NCBI GenBank assembly: GCA_947380945.1
Contig: CANCTD010000001.1
Location: 849-64,848 of the forward strand
Origin: Comamonadaceae bacterium
GTDB lineage: Bacteria; Pseudomonadota; Gammaproteobacteria; Burkholderiales; Burkholderiaceae_C
Direction of reading: 5' to 3'
Length of the DNA: 64,000 nucleotides
Positions 2,100 through 13,416 of this stretch are shown in pieces; within the stretch, counting starts at the first letter, position 1, and each line of letters starts with the position of its first letter. A model generated the notes under the pieces. That model was given only the letters and a program-made list of their open reading frames with translations, did not search any database and was not told the origin of the DNA. A program made the translations under genes and the position numbers.

Positions 2100-5000
2100 T
2101 CAGGACAACCATTTGTCAAGATAAGCCTGCTTGGCAATTTGTAACCGTTCCAGTTTTACTTGCTGTCGCTGCTTTTCAGCTTCAATATCGGTGGCCATTT
2201 TGCTCAGTTTCTTGACTTGGGAGCCGACATCGGGAACGGGAATCAGCATGACCTCACCGGGTTTGATGCGGGGCAGGCTGACGCCGCCCGTTTTTGCCTT
2301 GGCCTCTTCTACAAAGGTAGGGGCAAGCAACAAGTATTTCAGCAGCGTCGCTGGGATGCGCGGTTTGAGAACCAGAATTTCGGTGGAGCAGACACCATCG
2401 AAATCAGCAATCCAGACTTTGTTTAGGTAGGGGCGAAGTTTGCCGTACAACACGTCACCCTTGCGAAAGACATTCTTTGTGCTCTTAATCGTCGCGCCCT
2501 TGCACGGGCCAGTCCAGGTGCTTTCGCCAGTGCCTTCGGTGATGTGCTCAAGTCCGAGATAGTTGAAATCGGCGCTAGGTGCGTTGCCCGGATCGACACG
2601 TTCGCCCGACAGCGTACAGAAATCCCCAAGTGGACGACGTGTAGAGATAGCCAGCATCGCGGTGAAAAGTGGCTGCGCTATAGTTTGCACCCGCACCTTA
2701 CGGGCAGCCTCCAAAGATTCATATTTGCCTAGATGGCTGGCTACTGCCTGTTGTAAGGCGAGCGGCAATAGCGGGATGGTCACGTCACTGACTCGATCAA
2801 TATTCAAATTCTTGACGACTGGCCCCATCGCCTGTTCTGTAAACTGACTTTGTGAATGCTCACTTGACAGTACGTAGTACAGGTAGTCCCTGTCAATGTC
2901 AGACCGAATTTCGGATAAAACAAGCCATCCGTCATGAACACAACCGTTGATCTTTAGGATGTACGGCCTGCCAAAACTCATCGAATTTGAAATAATAAAG
3001 TCATCCGGCTGCACGGACTTGGACTTCTCCGCGCCGCTCATGGTGATCATCTCCGATGTGCTTTCTATGTATTTAGCTCCCGGCTTTACGTCGCCGATCT
3101 TTATCCAGTTGACACCATCAAGCGCCTTTGTGATGAAGCGATCTATTGGGCGAGGTGATGCGCCTCTCGAAATTTTTGCTGCATCGCTTAGTCGTATTAA
3201 CGGCCATCGCGTACTACGGGCTTTTTTTTTAACGCTTGTACCAATCGCTTTGTCGAAACGAACCTGATCAAAGCCTAACAAATCAGTCAGTGAAACGACA
3301 TTCACATAGTCGGTCAATTCTGTTGGCACGACTGGTGTTTCTCCAAGAAAGTTTTGGCGAATGAGGGTATTGATCTTGTTGGGGTCTGAGTCGTTGGTTT
3401 CGGAGTAGAGCGCCGTTTCAATTTGCCCAGACCCGGAAAGAATCTTTAGCCCTTCCGAGCCCTTTCGATTACTGAACTCGTAACCGAGAAACGCCTTTTC
3501 AGCGTTTTTGTCTGTTGGTGAATTGATCAGTACAACGCGCTGGTCGTTAACGAGGAAAAAGGTCAACATCTTTTCACCCTCTCGCCCACGGGCCCACACA
3601 CGGAACCGACTCTCCAACTGTACTGCTTGCTCTATCCTCGGCAGTGCCTTGAACTTCCTGTTTTTCTCGCGTAGCGCGCGAATCTCTGTCAGTTCGTCAA
3701 ACGCCTGGCGGTAGCTTGAAAGCAGAGTGTGTGCTGGCGCATGGGGATCTCCCCGCAGCAATGCCGAGAAAGTAGCAAGATCAACATTCCACACACTGCG
3801 GGCATAGAGTGCAAAAGCGTCTTCCTGTCCGGCTACGGTCATATCCCGCCAATCGCCGAAGTAGCTTTCTACCAGGCTGGCAATTCGCGCGTGTTCATCG
3901 TTCGCGCGCCTTTGCATGAACAGAATGACTGTATTCGTGCCGGTCGCCATGAAGGTGCCGCTGCCCATCACGGCAATGGCTTTGATTTGAAAATAGCGCA
4001 GCAATATGTCCCGTGCCGCTTCGTAGACACCACCGTTGGACAGAATGCTGGTTGGTAGCAAAAGACCGGTTACGCCACCGGGCTTGAGCACCTGTTTAGC
4101 CCGTTCTACAAACAGGCATTCAATCTCGCTGCTGGCATCAGTTAAGCGCGGCCAGAGGGTAAAAGATTTTTCTCCATGGCGAATGGTCTTTTTGCAGGCA
4201 CCTACGGAGTAAGGTGGGTTGGCCGCCACCACATCGAATTGCGGGTTGTCGCGTTCGCCGTCCGGCAGTGCTGTGTTGCGCAACCTTCCGGTGTACTCTT
4301 GGCTCAAGGCAAAGTTGTCCAACCCATCACCCAGGATCATGTTGGCTTCACCATCACCGTTCAAAAAGCAACTGACCTTCGCGGTCTTTGCCAGCCGGTA
4401 GTCCTTTTCAATGCCATAGACGAACTCATTGGCCCAGGCGTACTCTTCACGCCATTTGCGAAGGTTGCCCTTAAGCGCAGTTCGCATTTTGCTGCCGTCA
4501 ATGGTCTTAACGATGCGGTCAATTCGGTCCATGCCTTCAGTCATGAAATGCCCGCTGCCCGAGGCGTAATCCAAAAAGTAGGGCAGGAAGTTGGCATCGT
4601 TGGCCTTAATCTTGGCGGCAATGATGGCGCGCAATGGCAGGCTATCAATTAGGAACCGTGCAATAGGTATCGGGGTGAAAAATTGCCCGGCTTCCTGCTT
4701 GACGCTGGTGTTAAGCAGCAGCTCAAAAAAGTCACCCAAAAATTGCTGCTTGGAGGCATAGCGAAGCTTCTTGCCATGCAAAAGCCGGACTACTTCGCGC
4801 ACGATCTCTGCATTCGCGTTGAACGTTTTCTCGTCGAATACTTCTTTGAACGCGAATTCATTGTTCTTGAAGAGACGTAGCTCGGTGAAGATCGTATGCA
4901 GCGCCTGCCGGTCGGACTCTGTAACTGTGACCAGCAAGCGGCGGTCAATTTCGGCCTCGGAGTGGTCGGCGATCTCCATGCGCAGGTATTGGCTCATGCC

Positions 5001-5891
5001 CGCCTTGTAAAGGTCATTCAACCGGCTCAGGACGGTCTTTGCCGATTCACCGGCCTGCCATTGAAAATCCAGAGGTTCGTCGGCCTGCTTTTCTTCGTCC
5101 TGCACTTTGCAGATGAAAAGATTGAAAATCTTATTGAACGCATTGGGCTTGTCGGAAACGACGTACCGCCGCAGAATTTCAGCAAAGGCGTTGAATATGC
5201 GTCCACCGTCTTCCTGCTTCATGTCAACCAGATCGGCTTTGGTAAGACGCCGTTCTTGAATCTGATAGGGCTTGCCGTCAAATGCGCCGACTTCAAAACA
5301 TGACTTGTCCCATGACTCGAAAAGTTCGGCTACGGAATCACCCTCAAAAAACGAGGTATCGACCGCGCAGACTTTGGACTCGATGGCACTGGCAGAAAGC
5401 CGCGACGTATATAGGGCAATGAACTTTGCTGAACTGTCCTGTTGAAAGTAGCTCAACAACTGCCCCCCATCGTTGAATAGCTGGGTTTTTTCTTTCTCGA
5501 ACTCCGCACCCCATGTTTTGCATTCGACCATCAGGTAAGGCCTACCCTCCTGCAAAACGACTATATCTAGATAGCCGCCGGTATGGCCGAGTCGATATTC
5601 CTTTTCCAGAACAAGAGAATCCGGTGTGTAGCCCTGTGCCAGCAAGCGGTCAACGCATTCGAGCACAACCAGCGATTCGGATTGAGAGAGGTTTTGTGTT
5701 GATGTCCGGCCAGCGTTGCTTTTAATTGCGCTGCCGTAATCGATACGGCAATCGGCTGCTGTCCTGCCAAGCGCGATGCTGATGCTGTGCTTAAACGCCG
5801 AATAGGTCTTTGACCATTGCCCGCTTTTGCCGTCAACAGGTGCAAAACCCATAGCCTGCAAGGTGTTCTTGATTGTGTCGATGGATGCCAT
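2100..5891 (-). CDS. Single-chain restriction-modification enzyme (endonuclease + N6-adenine methyltransferase + two-TRD specificity domain), Type IIB/IIG-like
   Basis: N-terminal PD-(D/E)xK-like LEKEY..YLDIVV..MVECKTWG; MTase motifs GQFFTP, DYASGSGHF, NPPY; two HsdS-like TRDs (WPLIRLSDAAKISRGASPRPI; RRPLGDFCTLSGERVDP) each followed by a helical region; no helicase motifs. Confidence 0.9.
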   Translation of the reverse strand: MASIDTIKNTLQAMGFAPVDGKSGQWSKTYSAFKHSISIALGRTAADCRIDYGSAIKSNAGRTSTQNLSQSESLVVLECVDRLLAQGYTPDSLVLEKEYRLGHTGGYLDIVVLQEGRPYLMVECKTWGAEFEKEKTQLFNDGGQLLSYFQQDSSAKFIALYTSRLSASAIESKVCAVDTSFFEGDSVAELFESWDKSCFEVGAFDGKPYQIQERRLTKADLVDMKQEDGGRIFNAFAEILRRYVVSDKPNAFNKIFNLFICKVQDEEKQADEPLDFQWQAGESAKTVLSRLNDLYKAGMSQYLRMEIADHSEAEIDRRLLVTVTESDRQALHTIFTELRLFKNNEFAFKEVFDEKTFNANAEIVREVVRLLHGKKLRYASKQQFLGDFFELLLNTSVKQEAGQFFTPIPIARFLIDSLPLRAIIAAKIKANDANFLPYFLDYASGSGHFMTEGMDRIDRIVKTIDGSKMRTALKGNLRKWREEYAWANEFVYGIEKDYRLAKTAKVSCFLNGDGEANMILGDGLDNFALSQEYTGRLRNTALPDGERDNPQFDVVAANPPYSVGACKKTIRHGEKSFTLWPRLTDASSEIECLFVERAKQVLKPGGVTGLLLPTSILSNGGVYEAARDILLRYFQIKAIAVMGSGTFMATGTNTVILFMQRRANDEHARIASLVESYFGDWRDMTVAGQEDAFALYARSVWNVDLATFSALLRGDPHAPAHTLLSSYRQAFDELTEIRALREKNRKFKALPRIEQAVQLESRFRVWARGREGEKMLTFFLVNDQRVVLINSPTDKNAEKAFLGYEFSNRKGSEGLKILSGSGQIETALYSETNDSDPNKINTLIRQNFLGETPVVPTELTDYVNVVSLTDLLGFDQVRFDKAIGTSVKKKARSTRWPLIRLSDAAKISRGASPRPIDRFITKALDGVNWIKIGDVKPGAKYIESTSEMITMSGAEKSKSVQPDDFIISNSMSFGRPYILKINGCVHDGWLVLSEIRSDIDRDYLYYVLSSEHSQSQFTEQAMGPVVKNLNIDRVSDVTIPLLPLALQQAVASHLGKYESLEAARKVRVQTIAQPLFTAMLAISTRRPLGDFCTLSGERVDPGNAPSADFNYLGLEHITEGTGESTWTGPCKGATIKSTKNVFRKGDVLYGKLRPYLNKVWIADFDGVCSTEILVLKPRIPATLLKYLLLAPTFVEEAKAKTGGVSLPRIKPGEVMLIPVPDVGSQVKKLSKMATDIEAEKQRQQVKLERLQIAKQAYLDKWLS

Positions 5892-8543: not shown

Positions 8544-8896
8544 GGTGCACCCTCAGAATAGGCCCGCCATAACGCCATGCCAGCACCACAGCGCAAACCA
8601 TATCGGCTGCCGCGCCCAGCGGCGATGCAAGTGGGGCAGCTGAAATGGTGGGCTTGGTAGGCGGCATCCAGCACGCTCCAACTGGCGAGCTCCGGGACTG
8701 CGGCCTCGGCCTGGACATGGGCTGGGCCTGCGGGCTCAGCGCGGAGCGCATTTACCAATGCCGCCCGGTGCTGACGTAACCGATCCAGCCAGAGCGTTAC
8801 GGATTGGCGGGGCCCGCATGCCTTGACTTTCCCGCCCACCAAGCGAAGCGCAACGCCCGATTCCTGCGCCTGGCGGATCAGTGCTTGCGGGCTCAC
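8540..8896 (-). CDS. Hypothetical satellite protein (TubC N-terminal docking-like domain + HHxxCxxC..C cluster)
   Basis: Translationally coupled (ATGA overlaps) between the helicase and HGGxSTG genes; GVALRLVGGKVKACGP..LRQHRAALVNAL pattern; HHFSCPTC..RC. Confidence 0.7.
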   Translation of the reverse strand: MSPQALIRQAQESGVALRLVGGKVKACGPRQSVTLWLDRLRQHRAALVNALRAEPAGPAHVQAEAAVPELASWSVLDAAYQAHHFSCPTCIAAGRGSRYGLRCGAGMALWRAYSEGAP

Positions 8897-10182
8897 AACT
8901 CCACCTCGATTACCTCATTCCTATCCGGGCCAACCGTCGAAGATTCCGAAAATTCCACTTTTTTAGATGGGAAATCTTCGGAACCTTCGGGCGATTGGGA
9001 ATCTTCGCAGGGTAATGCCATGTCAGTCCCGCCTGGTAAACGCCAATACCAACCACCGCGCATACCGTCTTTTTTTCGAGCGATGTTGAGCTTCTTGGAT
9101 GCAGTCCAAATTTGCTTCTTGGTAAACCCGGCATCTTTCAGCGGCTGGGTGGCCAGCTTCTCGGAAGTCCAACAATCTACCGTCAGCTCGGCCTGGAGCA
9201 AACTCACAGCATTAGCGTGGTCGGCGCCGTCCTGGCCCTGCACCGGGTCGGTCAGAAGGTCTTGGGCGGAGCCCTCTACCGCTTGGCCCCATTCGATACG
9301 GCTGGCATCAATACCGGGCAGCGCATTCACTTGGGCCAAGTGGTATTCAAACCCGCCGTTGTCTGGCCCGATGTTGGACTTGCCGCGCGCCAAAATGCGT
9401 TTATCGGTGCCGTCCTCACTTTTGACTCGCGCTGCCACCAGCACCACACGTGCAACAGCGGTGAACGCGATGCTTCCAATGACCCGCTGCGCCGGGTCAG
9501 AGCCCTGACCCCCTTTAGACAGATGGGTAATGCCCAACAACGCCGCGTTGATCTGTGTGGCTAAGTCAACCAAGGGTTGCAGGCCACGGCGTACCTCGGT
9601 GTTCTTGTGGCTGTCACCGGCCACAGCGGTCGATACCGGGTCGATCACGATCATGCGCACACTACCGATTTGCTCGATAGCTTCTTTCAAAGTGCGCGTG
9701 TCGATGGACGGGTCAAACGGTCTGATCCCCTTACCCGTGCGCATGCCGTTGACAAAGTGGACACGGCTACGGTCTGCACCGGCGGCGATCAGGCGTGGCA
9801 GCAGGGTGTCGGTGTAGTCATCCTCACCACTCCAGATTAGTACCTGGCCCGCCTCGCAACTGGTCCCGTCCGGCCAGCGCCCGCCGATGGTGACGGTGGC
9901 CGCCAGGCCCATGGCGATGGTGGTTTTTCCCTGCCCCGGTGCACCCGCTAACAGGTGGAACTTGCCCAGCGCCAGCCAGTCGGACCAGAGCCATTGCACG
10001 GGCTCTGGCGTAAGGTCTGCACCGCAAGTCAGCACCACAGTGCCCTTGGAAAGTGATTCAGTACCAACTTGGCCGCTGCCCTTAGAAGATCGCTTGTTAG
10101 CAGCTATTGAATTTCCAGGGAAGGCGAAGGCTACGTCGTCATCAAGACTGGTAGCCATGTGTTCATACTCTCGTGAATTCAT
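8893..10182 (-). CDS. AAA/RecA-family RepA-type replicative helicase
   Basis: VQWLW, Walker A GAPGQGKTT, SGEDD, Walker B MIVIDP, ITHLSK, GSIAFTAVAR, KSNIGP. Confidence 0.85.
   Translation of the reverse strand: MNSREYEHMATSLDDDVAFAFPGNSIAANKRSSKGSGQVGTESLSKGTVVLTCGADLTPEPVQWLWSDWLALGKFHLLAGAPGQGKTTIAMGLAATVTIGGRWPDGTSCEAGQVLIWSGEDDYTDTLLPRLIAAGADRSRVHFVNGMRTGKGIRPFDPSIDTRTLKEAIEQIGSVRMIVIDPVSTAVAGDSHKNTEVRRGLQPLVDLATQINAALLGITHLSKGGQGSDPAQRVIGSIAFTAVARVVLVAARVKSEDGTDKRILARGKSNIGPDNGGFEYHLAQVNALPGIDASRIEWGQAVEGSAQDLLTDPVQGQDGADHANAVSLLQAELTVDCWTSEKLATQPLKDAGFTKKQIWTASKKLNIARKKDGMRGGWYWRLPGGTDMALPCEDSQSPEGSEDFPSKKVEFSESSTVGPDRNEVIEVEL
8938..9007. repeat. Five 10-bp iteron-like repeats (consensus CGAAGATTCC) in opposite orientations around an AT-rich spacer; candidate replication origin
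   Basis: Forward copies 8938-8947 and 8947-8956; reverse copies 8971-8980, 8980-8989 and 8998-9007; spacer ACTTTTTTAGATGG. Confidence 0.65.
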
Positions 10183-10643
10183 GCGAAGGCCTCCACCAGT
10201 CGGTTGATGCGATTGACTGCCACCATCAGACGTGCCCGGTCTGTATCGGTCAGCACCAGACCGCTCGCCACATTGCCCGCAGCGACAGCCGCCAGCGTAG
10301 ATTCAAACGCCATCACCGACAGGGCCAGGCGCGGGCTCAGTGGCGTGGGTTTGGTTTGTACCTGCGGGCGGTCATCCTCCACCCAGCAGCCCAATGCTTT
10401 CGCAGCTTCGACAAACTCGCGACCACCGACCCTGATCTCATAGGCCAGCACATCGCCGCCTTTCGCCCCGCAGCTCATGCACACCCATGCGCCGGTGGCG
10501 ACGTTGACACGCATGGAGTCCGAGCCGCCGTGAAAGTTGCAGGTGGTGGTTCTCCACTTGGCAGAGCGTGGGCCTTTTAGCTGCAAGCCCTGATTTTCAA
10601 AATAAGTCGTTGCATCGGGTATTCGGGTGCGGTCAAAGCTCAT
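10179..10643 (-). CDS. Stand-alone CHC2 (DnaG-type) zinc-finger protein
   Basis: CNFH..SMRVN..WVCMSCGAKGGDVL..FVEAAKALG; ATG at 10643 overlaps the end of alpA; no TOPRIM domain. Confidence 0.82.
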   Translation of the reverse strand: MSFDRTRIPDATTYFENQGLQLKGPRSAKWRTTTCNFHGGSDSMRVNVATGAWVCMSCGAKGGDVLAYEIRVGGREFVEAAKALGCWVEDDRPQVQTKPTPLSPRLALSVMAFESTLAAVAAGNVASGLVLTDTDRARLMVAVNRINRLVEAFA

Positions 10644-10893
10644 AACGCACCGCCGATCCCAGGTCAGCGCGCTTGGCATGTAAAGCCCTTACCAGTTCGC
10701 GTATCTGCTCGTCGGACTTGCCAGCGATACGCGCCGTGATGATTGCGTCTACTTCGTAATCAGGCCACCCTCTTGCACGCTGCCCAATTGCTACGCCGGT
10801 TGTGAAAAGCCCGTCCCGTATTGCGTTGTAGATGCTGGCGTCCGAACGGTGTCCAGCCCGGCATTTGACGGCTGGCATTCTGAGAATCTGCAT
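10633..10893 (-). CDS. alpA: AlpA family regulator / excisionase
   Basis: ILRMPAVK..SDASIYNAIRDGLFTTGVAIGQRARGWPDYEVDAI, typical AlpA signature and position. Confidence 0.88.
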   Translation of the reverse strand: MQILRMPAVKCRAGHRSDASIYNAIRDGLFTTGVAIGQRARGWPDYEVDAIITARIAGKSDEQIRELVRALHAKRADLGSAVRYEL

Positions 10894-10979
10894 ACCTGTA
10901 TCCCCCTATCCCGCCTTGGCGGTTGTTGCGATAGAGGAATTGTCAGAATCGGTAAAGCATCCGTCACTGACGATAAGTA

Positions 10980-11804
10980 TCAGATCTTTTTTGTCAGTGG
11001 CCGACTACCGGCCGCTAGCTCTTGCGTCAACTCATCCAAATGCTCCACATAGTCATCTAAGCTCAACTTCGGCACCGGAACACGAGGTTCATACATTGAT
11101 CTGTAGAACTCCCATGCTCCAGGCTCACTGCCCGTCTTCCGCATAATCTGATTCCATTGTCGATTTCTCAATCGATCTTCAACTGTTTCTCCAACGATCT
11201 TTTTGTGCGGTGCGATTAACCGCATGATGTGGCGTTCGCTTTTGTGGAACTCTTTACTAAGCAGCTCGACGGCCTCCGGATACCCGATGCCGGAATCCAT
11301 CATTTCCCAGTATCGTTCGGCAGCATTGCGCCCCACTGAATCCAGTTCCTTCCGCTTTGGACGACCCAACTTTTCCATTGGCAATGCGCCGAACATCACT
11401 GCCTTAGCTACTATCAAATTGATCAAATTTTGAAACTTTGGATCGATTGCATCACCCCACACAACCAATCCTGCAAAGTGGCTTAGGGCCTCAAGCTCTG
11501 CACCGTTCTCTTGCGTCGCAACGCGCTGAATCAGCTTTTTTTCTTGGCTTTCGATCGTCACCGTTATTTTTTTTCGTCGCGTTTTTCCCTGATGCAAATT
11601 CCGAAGGTACTTGTGTAATTTTTGTTTGTCTGCAAGTGTCAGGCTGTCCAGGGCACTCGCCTTCGGCACTCCGGCATCCCGCAATTGTGTCAATAGCGAC
11701 TCCGGACTTTCCCCTAACTCCAGAGCAAAGTCGGCGACAGACTGCAGCTCGCGATCCGCTTCGATCTGCCGCAACCGTTGCTGATATTCGGTTATTTTTG
11801 ACAT
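10980..11804 (-). CDS. Putative island regulator: IF2 N-terminal-like domain fused to a GRPK + HTH-like C-terminal region
   Basis: ATG 11804 with AGGGGG SD; residues ~22-83 follow the betaproteobacterial IF2 N-terminus pattern; GRPKRK..YPEAVELLSKEFHKSERHIMRLI is HTH-like; lies between int and alpA. Confidence 0.75.
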   Translation of the reverse strand: MSKITEYQQRLRQIEADRELQSVADFALELGESPESLLTQLRDAGVPKASALDSLTLADKQKLHKYLRNLHQGKTRRKKITVTIESQEKKLIQRVATQENGAELEALSHFAGLVVWGDAIDPKFQNLINLIVAKAVMFGALPMEKLGRPKRKELDSVGRNAAERYWEMMDSGIGYPEAVELLSKEFHKSERHIMRLIAPHKKIVGETVEDRLRNRQWNQIMRKTGSEPGAWEFYRSMYEPRVPVPKLSLDDYVEHLDELTQELAAGSRPLTKKI

Positions 11805-11908: not shown

Positions 11909-13147
11909 CTAAGCCGCCTTCATCTGAATCACATCCGCCCCCTGCGCCAGCTTGTCCAGGTAGTCAGCCCAGGCCTGCATCATGGTCGTGCGCTGTTTTA
12001 AGTATTGGGTTCGGTTGTAGGCGCGGCCGTTGGCGTCCTTCACCGCGTGGGCTAGCTGTGCCTCAATCACCAGCGGGTCGATATTCAATTCCTCTGCCAG
12101 TAGCGTGCGCGCCGTGGCTCTAAACCCATGCACGCTCTGTGCATCCGGGCCATAGCCCAAAGTCAGCAGCGCCGCGCGCAGCGTGTTGTCACTGATTGGT
12201 CTGGCGTGGCTGCGCTCACCGCGAAAGCACAGCGCGCCGTTGCCGGTGATGGGGTGTAACTCCCGCAGAATATTCACCGCCTGCCTAGGCAGTGGCACCA
12301 GGTGCGGGTCGCCGTTGCGCTTGCCGTCTACGCTGCGTTTCATGCGCGCCGCCGGGATAGTCCACAGTGCCGCGTCCAGGTCAAACTCTGCCCAGGCCGC
12401 CGCCCGCAGCTCGCCGGGCCGCTGAAACAGCATGGGTGCAAGTTGCAGCGCCGCGCGCACAATCGGCCCGCCCTGATAGCCCCGAATCACCCGCACCAGC
12501 GCGCCCAGCTTGGCCGGGTCGGTAATGGCTGCAAAGTGCTTGCCGTGGTGGGGCTTGAGTGCGCCGCGAATATCGGCGCTCACATCGCGTGGCGTGCGCC
12601 CGGTGGCTACCCCATAGCGCCATACCTGCCCGGCGGTTGTAAGTACCCTGTGCGCCACGTCAAGGGCTCCGCGTTCCTCTACCCTGCGCACCACGGCCAA
12701 CAGCTCTATGGCCTCTATGGTGGCAATGTCACGGCTGCCCAAAAAAGGGAACAGGTCTTTTTCTAGGTTGCGCTTCTCGCGGATAGCGTAGTGGCCGCTC
12801 CAGCTCTCACGCTTGAGGTCGAACCATTCCAGCGCGGTCGCCTGAAAAGTGTTCCCCGCCGGGGTCAGCTTCTTTAGCTTTGCGACCTTGCGTGCCAGCA
12901 CGGGGTCGATGCCTTCGGACTTTTGCGCTTTGGCAGCATCGCGCGCCTTGCGAACAGCCTTCAGGGTGACCTCTGGGTAGCTGCCGAGCGCCAGCCGCCC
13001 CTCTTTACCGTCCGAGTAGGTTTTCCAGAACCAGCGCTTCGACCCAGCGGGGCTTACCTCAAGGTACAGGCCGTTTGAATCGGTTAATCGAGCCCGCTGC
13101 TTATCCGGTGGACAGCTAGCGTTCTTGCAATCGGCATCGGTCAACAT
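11909..13147 (-). CDS. P4/CP4-like tyrosine integrase with N-terminal arm-binding domain
   Basis: MLTD..DSNGLYLEVSPAGSKRW..LGSYPEVTL arm domain; catalytic RPGELR, HGFRATART, QLAH, AYNR; GGAGA SD before ATG 13147. Confidence 0.95.
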   Translation of the reverse strand: MLTDADCKNASCPPDKQRARLTDSNGLYLEVSPAGSKRWFWKTYSDGKEGRLALGSYPEVTLKAVRKARDAAKAQKSEGIDPVLARKVAKLKKLTPAGNTFQATALEWFDLKRESWSGHYAIREKRNLEKDLFPFLGSRDIATIEAIELLAVVRRVEERGALDVAHRVLTTAGQVWRYGVATGRTPRDVSADIRGALKPHHGKHFAAITDPAKLGALVRVIRGYQGGPIVRAALQLAPMLFQRPGELRAAAWAEFDLDAALWTIPAARMKRSVDGKRNGDPHLVPLPRQAVNILRELHPITGNGALCFRGERSHARPISDNTLRAALLTLGYGPDAQSVHGFRATARTLLAEELNIDPLVIEAQLAHAVKDANGRAYNRTQYLKQRTTMMQAWADYLDKLAQGADVIQMKAA

Positions 13148-13162
13148 GGGGTTCTCCAGTGA

Positions 13163-13229
13163 AAACCGGGGAACAATCTCCAAAAAATCCCGTTTACCCC
13201 GGTTTGTTCCCCGGTATGTTCCCCGGTTT
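13163..13229. repeat. Arm-type repeats: one inverted and three tandem copies of the GTTCCCCGGTTT-like 12-mer upstream of int
   Basis: AAACCGGGGAAC 13163-13174; TTACCCCGGTTT, GTTCCCCGGTAT, GTTCCCCGGTTT 13194-13229. Confidence 0.8.
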
Positions 13230-13339: not shown

Positions 13340-13416
13340 TGGTCGGTGTGAAAGGATTCGAACCTTCGACCCCTTGCACCCCATGCAAGTGCGCTACCAG
13401 GCTGCGCCACACACCG
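13340..13416 (-). tRNA. tRNA-Pro(GGG)
   Basis: 77 nt CGGTGTG..CACACCG-ACCA; anticodon arm CTTGC-ATGGGGT-GCAAG; T-loop GGTTCGAATCC. Confidence 0.97.

Follow-up and report, generated by a model that had tools for sequence, protein, structure and literature searches.

A conserved protein of the integrase-AlpA module of a capsid-less island in a Comamonadaceae bacterium carries an N-terminal homologue of the IF2 N1 sub-domain

The gene considered here, which we call X, lies between the integrase gene (int) and alpA in a capsid-less island of a Comamonadaceae bacterium, and its product has near its N-terminus a domain related to the N1 sub-domain of translation initiation factor IF2. The DNA that was analysed, referred to as the window, is a stretch of 64,000 nucleotides of assembly GCA_947380945.1 (contig CANCTD010000001.1, positions 849 to 64,848 of the forward strand). 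An earlier reading, made from the sequence alone, had described residues 22-83 of X (nt 11556-11741) as an apparent captured copy of the N-terminal domain of host IF2, lacking the GTPase domain, followed instead by GRPK and a helix-turn-helix (HTH)-like region, and placed in the regulator slot between int and alpA. The residues, the coordinates and the gene order quoted there were all correct, and int, X, alpA and the replication genes all lie on the minus strand (Table 1).

Table 1. Features of gene X and of the island that carries it (positions in the window)
Feature	Position	Strand	Basis and remarks
Gene X, 274-aa protein	10980..11804	-	open reading frame (ORF) and translation; between int and alpA
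N-terminal helix, residues 1-19 (MSKIsdY..; M1, K3, Y7 invariant)	11748..11804	-	alignment; AlphaFold2 helix 3-18
IF2 N1-like domain, residues 20-70	11595..11747	-	Pfam, BLASTP, PDB profile, structural match
RRKKITV, residues 77-83	11556..11576	-	corresponds to the RKKITL strand after N1 in IF2 (start of Pfam IF2_assoc)
Three-helix unit with invariant NGAE motif, residues 86-140	11385..11549	-	invariant alignment columns; AlphaFold2 model
Invariant GRPK arm and HTH-like unit (HK.ERH.MR), residues 147-210	11175..11366	-	alignment; structural matches
C-terminal helices ending in conserved PLTKKI, residues 211-274	10983..11174	-	alignment; AlphaFold2 model
Conserved element across the X stop codon (candidate regulatory element)	10963..11000	-	CCACTGACA, 21 nt, then G-Y-CAGTGAC
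AlpA-family protein (Phage_AlpA, 24.5 bits)	10633..10893	-	Pfam
CHC2 zinc-finger (primase-type) protein	10179..10679	-	Pfam
AAA_25 (RepA/DnaB-like) ATPase	8893..10182	-	Pfam
Tyrosine integrase (Arm-DNA-bind_3, Phage_int_M, Phage_integrase)	11909..13183	-	Pfam
tRNA-Pro(GGG), integration site	13340..13416	-	core TGGTCGGTGTGAAA recurs imperfectly at ~1913-1927

The IF2 N1-like domain of X

The reading frame of X starts with MSKITEYQ, with a Shine-Dalgarno-like GGGGG run upstream; a longer frame initiated at TTG exists, and all homologues begin at MSKI. The Pfam family IF2_N (PF04760) was matched by residues 22-67 with 28.1 bits (E 1.7e-6), the gathering cut-off of this family being 25.3 bits, and this was the sole Pfam match of the protein. 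In a six-frame scan of the genome the same domain of X reached 29.5 bits. The host's own infB, located on a different contig of the assembly and directly downstream of nusA, encodes an IF2 of 957 aa, and in a BLASTP comparison residues 20-82 of X were identical to residues 3-66 of this factor at 31 of 64 positions (48%, E 2e-7), the RKKIT motif included. The match to IF2_N proposed in the sequence-only reading was therefore borne out.

A profile built from 26 members of the X family found only IF2 chains when compared with the PDB, namely residues 4-72 of the Pseudomonas aeruginosa factor (7uiu, E 2.4e-7) and the N-terminal domain of Escherichia coli IF2 (1nd9, E 9e-4). Applied to 150 further host-family genomes, the same profile detected the N-terminus of IF2 in 137 of them, with E values from 1e-11 to 8e-21. 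In the AlphaFold model the N1-like domain was predicted with a confidence (predicted local distance difference test, pLDDT) of ~80-84, and a scan of PDB representatives with residues 19-78 returned Thermus IF2 (4b3x_A) as the closest structure, with a modest Z score of 7.0 and a root-mean-square deviation (rmsd) of 4.3 over 60 residues. Judged from these sequence and profile matches, the N-terminal domain of X is a true homologue of the IF2 N1 sub-domain and not a chance resemblance.

The similarity to IF2 is confined to this region. With its 274 aa and IF2_N as the only Pfam domain, X lacks the GTPase G domain and the C-terminal fMet-tRNA binding domains, and the GRPK motif that follows instead, as had been noticed earlier, is invariant in the family. 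The second strand of the IF2 region (IQVEVRKKR) is missing as well, and Pfam IF2_assoc has no match in X, though it is matched in three other proteins with an IF2-like N-terminal region that are described below (P0183, P0049 and P0044). Conversely, the N-terminal helix of X is absent from IF2 and from the relatives of X that are devoid of N1. Within the RRKKI codons of X there is a run of eight A residues (window 11566-11573, minus strand; CGA CGA AAA AAA ATA). A programmed frameshift at this run was considered and rejected, since homologues use other codons there and no slippery site is conserved.

Distribution, conservation and origin of the domain

The X family comprises ~40 clusters (at 90% identity), nearly all of 270-280 aa and alignable from end to end at 42-66% identity; a precomputed PF04760 match exists for 32 of the 40. 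The family is rare: of the 151 genomes that represent the genera of the host's family, 3 carry a member, and scanning 185,579 species genomes for the pattern yielded two loci only, in metagenome-assembled genomes of Roseateles and Acidovorax. There was no relative of X among 50,697 phage records or in IMG/VR, and in a plasmid collection only Neisseria chromosomes were matched, through their own IF2. Two further candidates were discarded: a second IF2_N match in genome G247 is an ordinary nusA-infB pair at a contig end, and the match in P0052 (2177 aa) is spurious and cadherin-like.

The N1-like domain is kept in all 38 diverged full-length members, with V23, A27, L30, L41, K48 and T56 among the invariant residues. 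Its mean pairwise identity is 55%, compared with 54% for the N-terminal helix, 58% for the middle helices, 66% for the GRPK-HTH segment, which is the best conserved part of the protein, and 43% for the C-terminus. Conservation of the IF2-like domain is on a par with that of the remainder of X, which answers positively the question, raised by the sequence-only reading, of its conservation among homologues. We propose from this alignment that the domain has been kept under purifying selection. A search for family members with a different N-domain, and for longer fusions of the C-terminal module, found neither, and a fusion search of this kind is weak evidence. Of what that reading had suggested looking for in a survey of such loci, the fusion itself does recur in the same position; exchanged N-domains were not encountered, and natural variants devoid of N1 were.

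These variants bear on how the domain was gained. In one island, the N1-less protein P0040 (192 aa) stands in the order int, X', AlpA, zinc ribbon and DUF927, and in Acidovorax an N1-less protein of 199 aa, which starts with MERKRITIP, directly follows int; an identical copy of the latter locus exists in a host-family genome, which places the host in the GTDB family that includes Acidovorax. When a tree was built from the C-terminal module, one branch (98/91) separated every N1-bearing protein from the two N1-less ones. A search with P0040 recovered only P0040, and in a protein atlas the clusters nearest to the C-terminal module by features were several hypothetical ones of 180-200 aa from Pseudomonadota (scores 0.95-0.96). 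As the N1-less relatives fill the same slot, the N1 domain looks to have been added, probably once, onto a C-terminal module that also exists alone.

In order to trace the source of the domain, the N-domains of 38 X proteins were compared with three sets of IF2 N-termini, taken from 28 host-family genomes, from 28 further families of Burkholderiales and from 22 further orders of the class; the last set includes one locus, L068, from an unpublished genome (G079), and no conclusion rests on it. Mean identity to the X N-domains was 47.5% for IF2 of the host family, 39.5% for IF2 of the other Burkholderiales families and 31% for IF2 of the other orders, and the X profile scored the three sets at 91-98, 64-86 and 39-70 bits, respectively, the range of the host family overlapping neither of the other two. 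The X N-domains are 47% identical to one another, and all 38 are on average closest to host-family IF2. In a tree with the host as the sole member of its family, the X proteins formed one clade (99/82), placed within Burkholderiales IF2 (99/90) as a sister to host IF2 (100/95). When the host family was represented by 14 sequences, the best maximum-likelihood tree placed X together with IF2 of that family on one side of a branch (98/89). The alignment behind these trees has 68 columns only. A single clade of X was not rejected by the approximately unbiased (AU) test (p 0.46).

Nesting of the X N-domains inside host-family IF2 is favoured by these comparisons, though not proven. We read the domain as a descendant of the IF2 found in this bacterial lineage, most likely in the host family, and as a single acquisition. 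With only 48% identity to host IF2, and with all copies belonging to one lineage, it does not appear as a recent copy from this particular host; by the same comparisons, it is an old, single and lineage-matched acquisition. The capture claim of the sequence-only reading is supported as far as the bacterial family is concerned (38 of 38 closest to its IF2; 98/89), a recent event in this host being disfavoured.

The C-terminal module, the island and related fusions

Residues 84-274 of X were predicted as an all-helical module (pLDDT 86), within which the three-helix unit has no specific fold match. The HTH-like unit (residues 150-209) resembles DeoR (8r7y_A, Z 6.4, rmsd 1.7 over 52 residues) and SorC (2w48_A, Z 5.4), and it can also be superposed on TnpE and on Mu transposase I-beta (2ezk, Foldseek probability 0.80); Z scores of all these matches range over 5.3-6.4, which is usual for small helical units. 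Foldseek comparison of either the whole X model or the C-terminal model with the PDB gave no match at E <= 0.001, and X had no meaningful match in NCBIfam, PHROGs or PADLOC. On the basis of the predicted structure, the C-terminal 190 residues are most likely DNA-binding, and DNA binding by X is a reasonable inference from this model.

The island extends over ~11.4 kb, from tRNA-Pro(GGG) to the place near 1913 where the core from the 3' end of the tRNA recurs imperfectly. Apart from the genes listed in Table 1, it carries a Type IIG restriction-modification enzyme, DUF932 and small ORFs, and there are no virion genes in it, so that it can be described as capsid-less and satellite-like. In an attempt at an empty-site comparison, the two flanks were found ~136 kb apart in a genome of the same genus (G228), at 69% identity, and this genome was thus uninformative. 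The order int, X, alpA, small ORF(s) and a zinc-finger or primase-helicase gene was found in all five integrase-holding island types that were read, on the basis of Pfam-called genes: those of the window, of P0012, of P0002, of the most diverged P0157 and of the N1-less P0040. Related islands carry primases of the Toprim/DUF3987 or DUF927 type. In the Roseateles and Acidovorax loci, the order int, X and an AlpA-like ORF was established by ORF reading only. The gap between X and int is 104 nt in the window and 5 nt in the P0157 island. No site resembling an intrinsic terminator was detected on the minus strand between int and the helicase gene, nor were nut-like or terminator signals detected near X.

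At the junction of X and alpA there is a DNA element whose conservation goes far beyond that of the protein: CCACTGACA (codons P-L-T) is invariant at all synonymous sites in five diverged loci. Its arms, CACTGAC and GTCAGTG, constitute an inverted repeat, with an RNA fold z of -2.1, and a promoter scan matched the same stretch as a -35 sequence CTGACA, a 16-nt spacer and TATCGT. Further copies are located at L007:8800-8834, L013:8815-8849, L076:2436-2470 and L110:2527-2569; the element is present in every N1-bearing locus compared and in none of the N1-less ones. From its sequence, it is a candidate for an alpA promoter/operator or an RNA hairpin.

Several other features of these islands may be mentioned. 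A 19-nt direct repeat, CCCCGGTTTGTTCCCCGGT, occurs in three copies (1992-2010, 13197-13215 and 13209-13227) just inside both ends of the island, and these repeats look like integrase arm-type sites. The restriction-modification cargo of the window (2100-5891, minus strand) is a single-chain enzyme of 1263 aa, matched by PADLOC REase_MTase_IIG (E 2.7e-212) and bearing two Type I-like specificity domains at its C-terminus. In locus L110 (X protein P0033) no integrase adjoins X, and the region downstream of X (L110:6924-8546) encodes a Bub-like ubiquitin-type module (BubE, ThiF/DUF6791, Multi_ubiq), likely a defence cargo.

IF2-like N-terminal regions were also met outside the X family. P0183 (L111:6001-7935) is a 644-aa protein, the ~100 first residues of which are of the Burkholderiales IF2 type (IF2_N and IF2_assoc) and are fused to an ATPase of the ABC/SMC type. 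Its best PADLOC match is mad3 (MADS; E 1.6e-10), and it shares an operon with a 1283-aa N6_Mtase/Eco57I gene, the end of which is overlapped by the start of P0183; judging by these matches, it looks like a defence ATPase with an IF2 N-terminal region. A second family, of 225-290 aa, consists of P0068 (L113:6001-6873 and L114:1975-2847), P0049 and P0057, which share an IF2 N1-like start and an unrelated C-terminal part; P0068 is encoded in Tn7-like cargo (TniQ, AAA_22) and adjoins a gene for a RES-domain toxin. Finally, the metagenomic P0044 (1217 aa), either a gene or an assembly chimera, contains a zinc ribbon, two copies of IF2_N plus IF2_assoc separated by ~540 residues, and a long tail resembling helical repeats.

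Possible roles of the IF2-like domain

It was demonstrated recently that Domain I of E. coli IF2, composed of N1 (residues 1-50) and two strands (57-90), binds the C-terminal part of NusA (Metelev & Johansson 2025, PMC12297416). Evidence for this contact came from pull-down and from in-cell crosslinks at positions 13, 50 and 88, and upon C-terminal deletion of NusA the nucleoid binding of Domain I was lost and its slow-diffusing state nearly vanished; an AlphaFold3 model put the contact on the KH2-AR1 part of NusA, with both strands at the interface (PMC12297416). AR1 and AR2 of NusA are the surfaces employed by lambda N and Q (PMC7171158). NusA of the host is a protein of 500 aa with the full set of domains, C-terminal repeats included (HHH_5 at 434-488).

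Since N1 of E. coli IF2 binds NusA, the N1 domain of X would most likely be a NusA-docking module as well. We tentatively prefer, with a confidence that falls somewhat short of even, the interpretation in which X serves the integrase-AlpA module as a conserved accessory protein, in a small capsid-less island of Comamonadaceae-type Burkholderiales, and is docked on NusA by its IF2-derived domain. One branch of the family would have acquired N1 and the first following strand (RKKIT) from host-family IF2, probably once, and the domain would then dock X onto NusA of the host. Such docking would tie the DNA-bound X, engaged in the control of excision or in expression of alpA and the early operon, to transcribing RNA polymerase; alternatively, X and IF2 would be competitors for NusA. 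The comparisons themselves establish the homology, the distribution and conservation of the family, the gene order and a predicted HTH; from them we infer that X binds DNA, docks on NusA and affects excision or transcription. A complex prediction for X(1-100) and host NusA(200-500), both supplied as alignments, ended with a score of 0.02 and a mark of 0.32; it gives no verdict and was counted neither for nor against.

Several observations weigh against this interpretation. Of the two strands that the published model places at the NusA interface, only the first is retained in X. The contact between IF2 and NusA was shown in E. coli only, and its authors stress that the IF2 N-terminus and the NusA C-terminus are both non-conserved (PMC12297416). 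As the N1-less relatives occupy the same slot, the domain must be dispensable for the core function of that slot. The HTH-like unit, with structural scores as ordinary as those quoted above, is accompanied by no Pfam HTH match in X. As to the origin of the domain, the AU test, which touches the capture claim too, does not reject a grouping of all Burkholderiales IF2 together with X outside it (p 0.28 with the careful tree, p 0.69 with the quick one). Last, the N1 fold might itself bind DNA, for the model resembles winged-helix domains of the MerR type, as the sequence-only reading had noted for IF2_N, with modest Z scores: the structural neighbours of residues 19-78 include pSK1 Par (8csh_A, Z 5.7), RacA (5i41_B, Z 4.8) and an entry for Rpp/TerS of PICI (6hn7_A, Z 5.1).

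This last resemblance leads to another explanation, in which the fold has been put to a different use, as a second winged-helix unit for DNA or RNA binding or for oligomerisation within an Int/AlpA recombination or repression complex, with no link to the partners of IF2. The place of X among recombination genes and the conserved inverted repeat at the X/alpA junction are in line with it, as is the case of the Vibrio PICMI prototype, PICMI115, where excision requires iolg (named icg in some relatives), the gene located between int and alpA (PMC10803314). For the same reason, the label of regulator given to X in the sequence-only reading is unproven, the same-slot gene being an excision factor there. 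Nevertheless, for all their long divergence, the X domains have their highest scores with IF2 of the host family, and the IF2-specific RKKIT strand has been kept, which fits retention of an IF2-like surface better than a drift towards a new ligand. Moreover, DNA binding is not known, to our knowledge, for N1 of IF2, and we regard such a change of use as rather unlikely. It is unlikely, too, and somewhat more so, that the domain serves as a decoy or sensor, mimicking IF2 N1 in order to catch a phage protein directed at IF2 or at the IF2-NusA contact, so that infection would switch X and activate the island. Induction through binding of a helper protein to the regulator is typical of satellites and established for Stl of SaPI, and the occurrence of IF2 N-terminal regions on defence-type proteins in the same bacterial group (P0183, and P0068 beside a RES toxin) is circumstantial support. 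However, X is co-directional with int and alpA, not divergent as Stl-type repressors are, the phage collections searched contain no relative of X, and we know of no phage factor that targets N1 of IF2.

Origin from a translation factor, together with the role in ribosomal subunit affinity that older biochemistry gives to the IF2 N-terminal region, makes it conceivable that X is recruited through this domain to ribosomes, or to 30S subunits engaged in initiation, coupling the island to the state of translation. X is, however, devoid of the long linker and of the G and C domains which hold IF2 on the ribosome, and isolated Domain I in living E. coli acts as a NusA and nucleoid binder (PMC12297416); a tether of this kind is improbable in our judgement. 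The N1-less Acidovorax relative begins exactly at RKRIT, and such a junction could mark a site of illegitimate recombination. Should this be so, the domain might be a neutral passenger, the remnant of a past recombination event that involved infB and took place, for instance, within the RKKIT-coding stretch common to both genes; the filling of the same slot by N1-less proteins would agree with this. That all 38 diverged full-length members retain the domain, and that it is conserved to the same degree as the rest of X, makes a neutral remnant highly improbable.

Returning to NusA docking, a bolder proposal may be formulated, which we consider possible yet doubtful: islands stole the NusA-docking domain of their hosts' IF2, and X either rides NusA-bound RNA polymerase or displaces IF2, timing excision and alpA expression. 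Viewed together with the fusions of IF2 N-terminal regions to defence ATPases, the N1-NusA contact would then have been targeted repeatedly as mobile elements and their hosts came into conflict. The function of IF2 N1 was obscure until the 2025 finding on NusA in E. coli, and a host-family-like copy of N1 kept for long on a mobile element constitutes independent evolutionary evidence for a host partner worth mimicking in Burkholderiales. The N1 region of X (~65 residues) could serve as a compact natural probe for the IF2-NusA link, and a testable function is offered for the poorly understood gene between int and alpA of minimal islands. If the decoy explanation were true, X would point to phage factors aimed at IF2.

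We found no description in the literature of the X family or of an IF2 N1 domain on a satellite, and X falls within two known themes, accessory proteins of satellite int modules and mimicry of host domains by mobile elements. Compared with Domain I of IF2 (1nd9, 7uiu, 4b3x), X is alike in sequence, in the predicted fold and in the spacing of RKKIT; it differs by the 19-residue helix in front, by the missing second strand, linker, GTPase and C domains, and by the fusion to an HTH-type island protein. In the other IF2-N fusions (P0183 and P0068/P0049/P0057), too, a host-like IF2 N-terminal region heads a protein that is no translation factor and is encoded on a mobile or defence locus. The region is longer there (IF2_N and IF2_assoc, ~100 residues) and is joined to ATPase or unknown modules, whereas X has N1 and one strand on an HTH module, in an old lineage of its own.

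Lambda N and Q are proteins of a mobile element acting via the C-terminal repeats of NusA, the same host surface that X would use if it binds like IF2 N1, but their sequences are unrelated to that of X, and N, an RNA-binding peptide, is intrinsically disordered. Like Stl of SaPI, X is satellite-encoded, predicted to bind DNA, located beside int and might be switched by a protein partner; unlike Stl, it is co-directional with the genes it would control and has no XRE-type HTH according to Pfam. The island as a whole shares int, alpA and primase/replicase genes, as well as the lack of virion structural genes, with P4-like, PICI and PICMI satellites. The closest parallel in position is provided by iolg/icg of the PICMIs of Vibrionaceae, genes of 13 families and of unknown function (PMC10803314). 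Similarly to them, X directly follows int and precedes alpA, all three being encoded on one strand of a minimal island that has a primase/replicase and no capsid genes, a likeness of position and not one drawn from sequence comparison; the PICMI genes differ in the host group, overlap int, as X does not, and have no IF2 domain reported.

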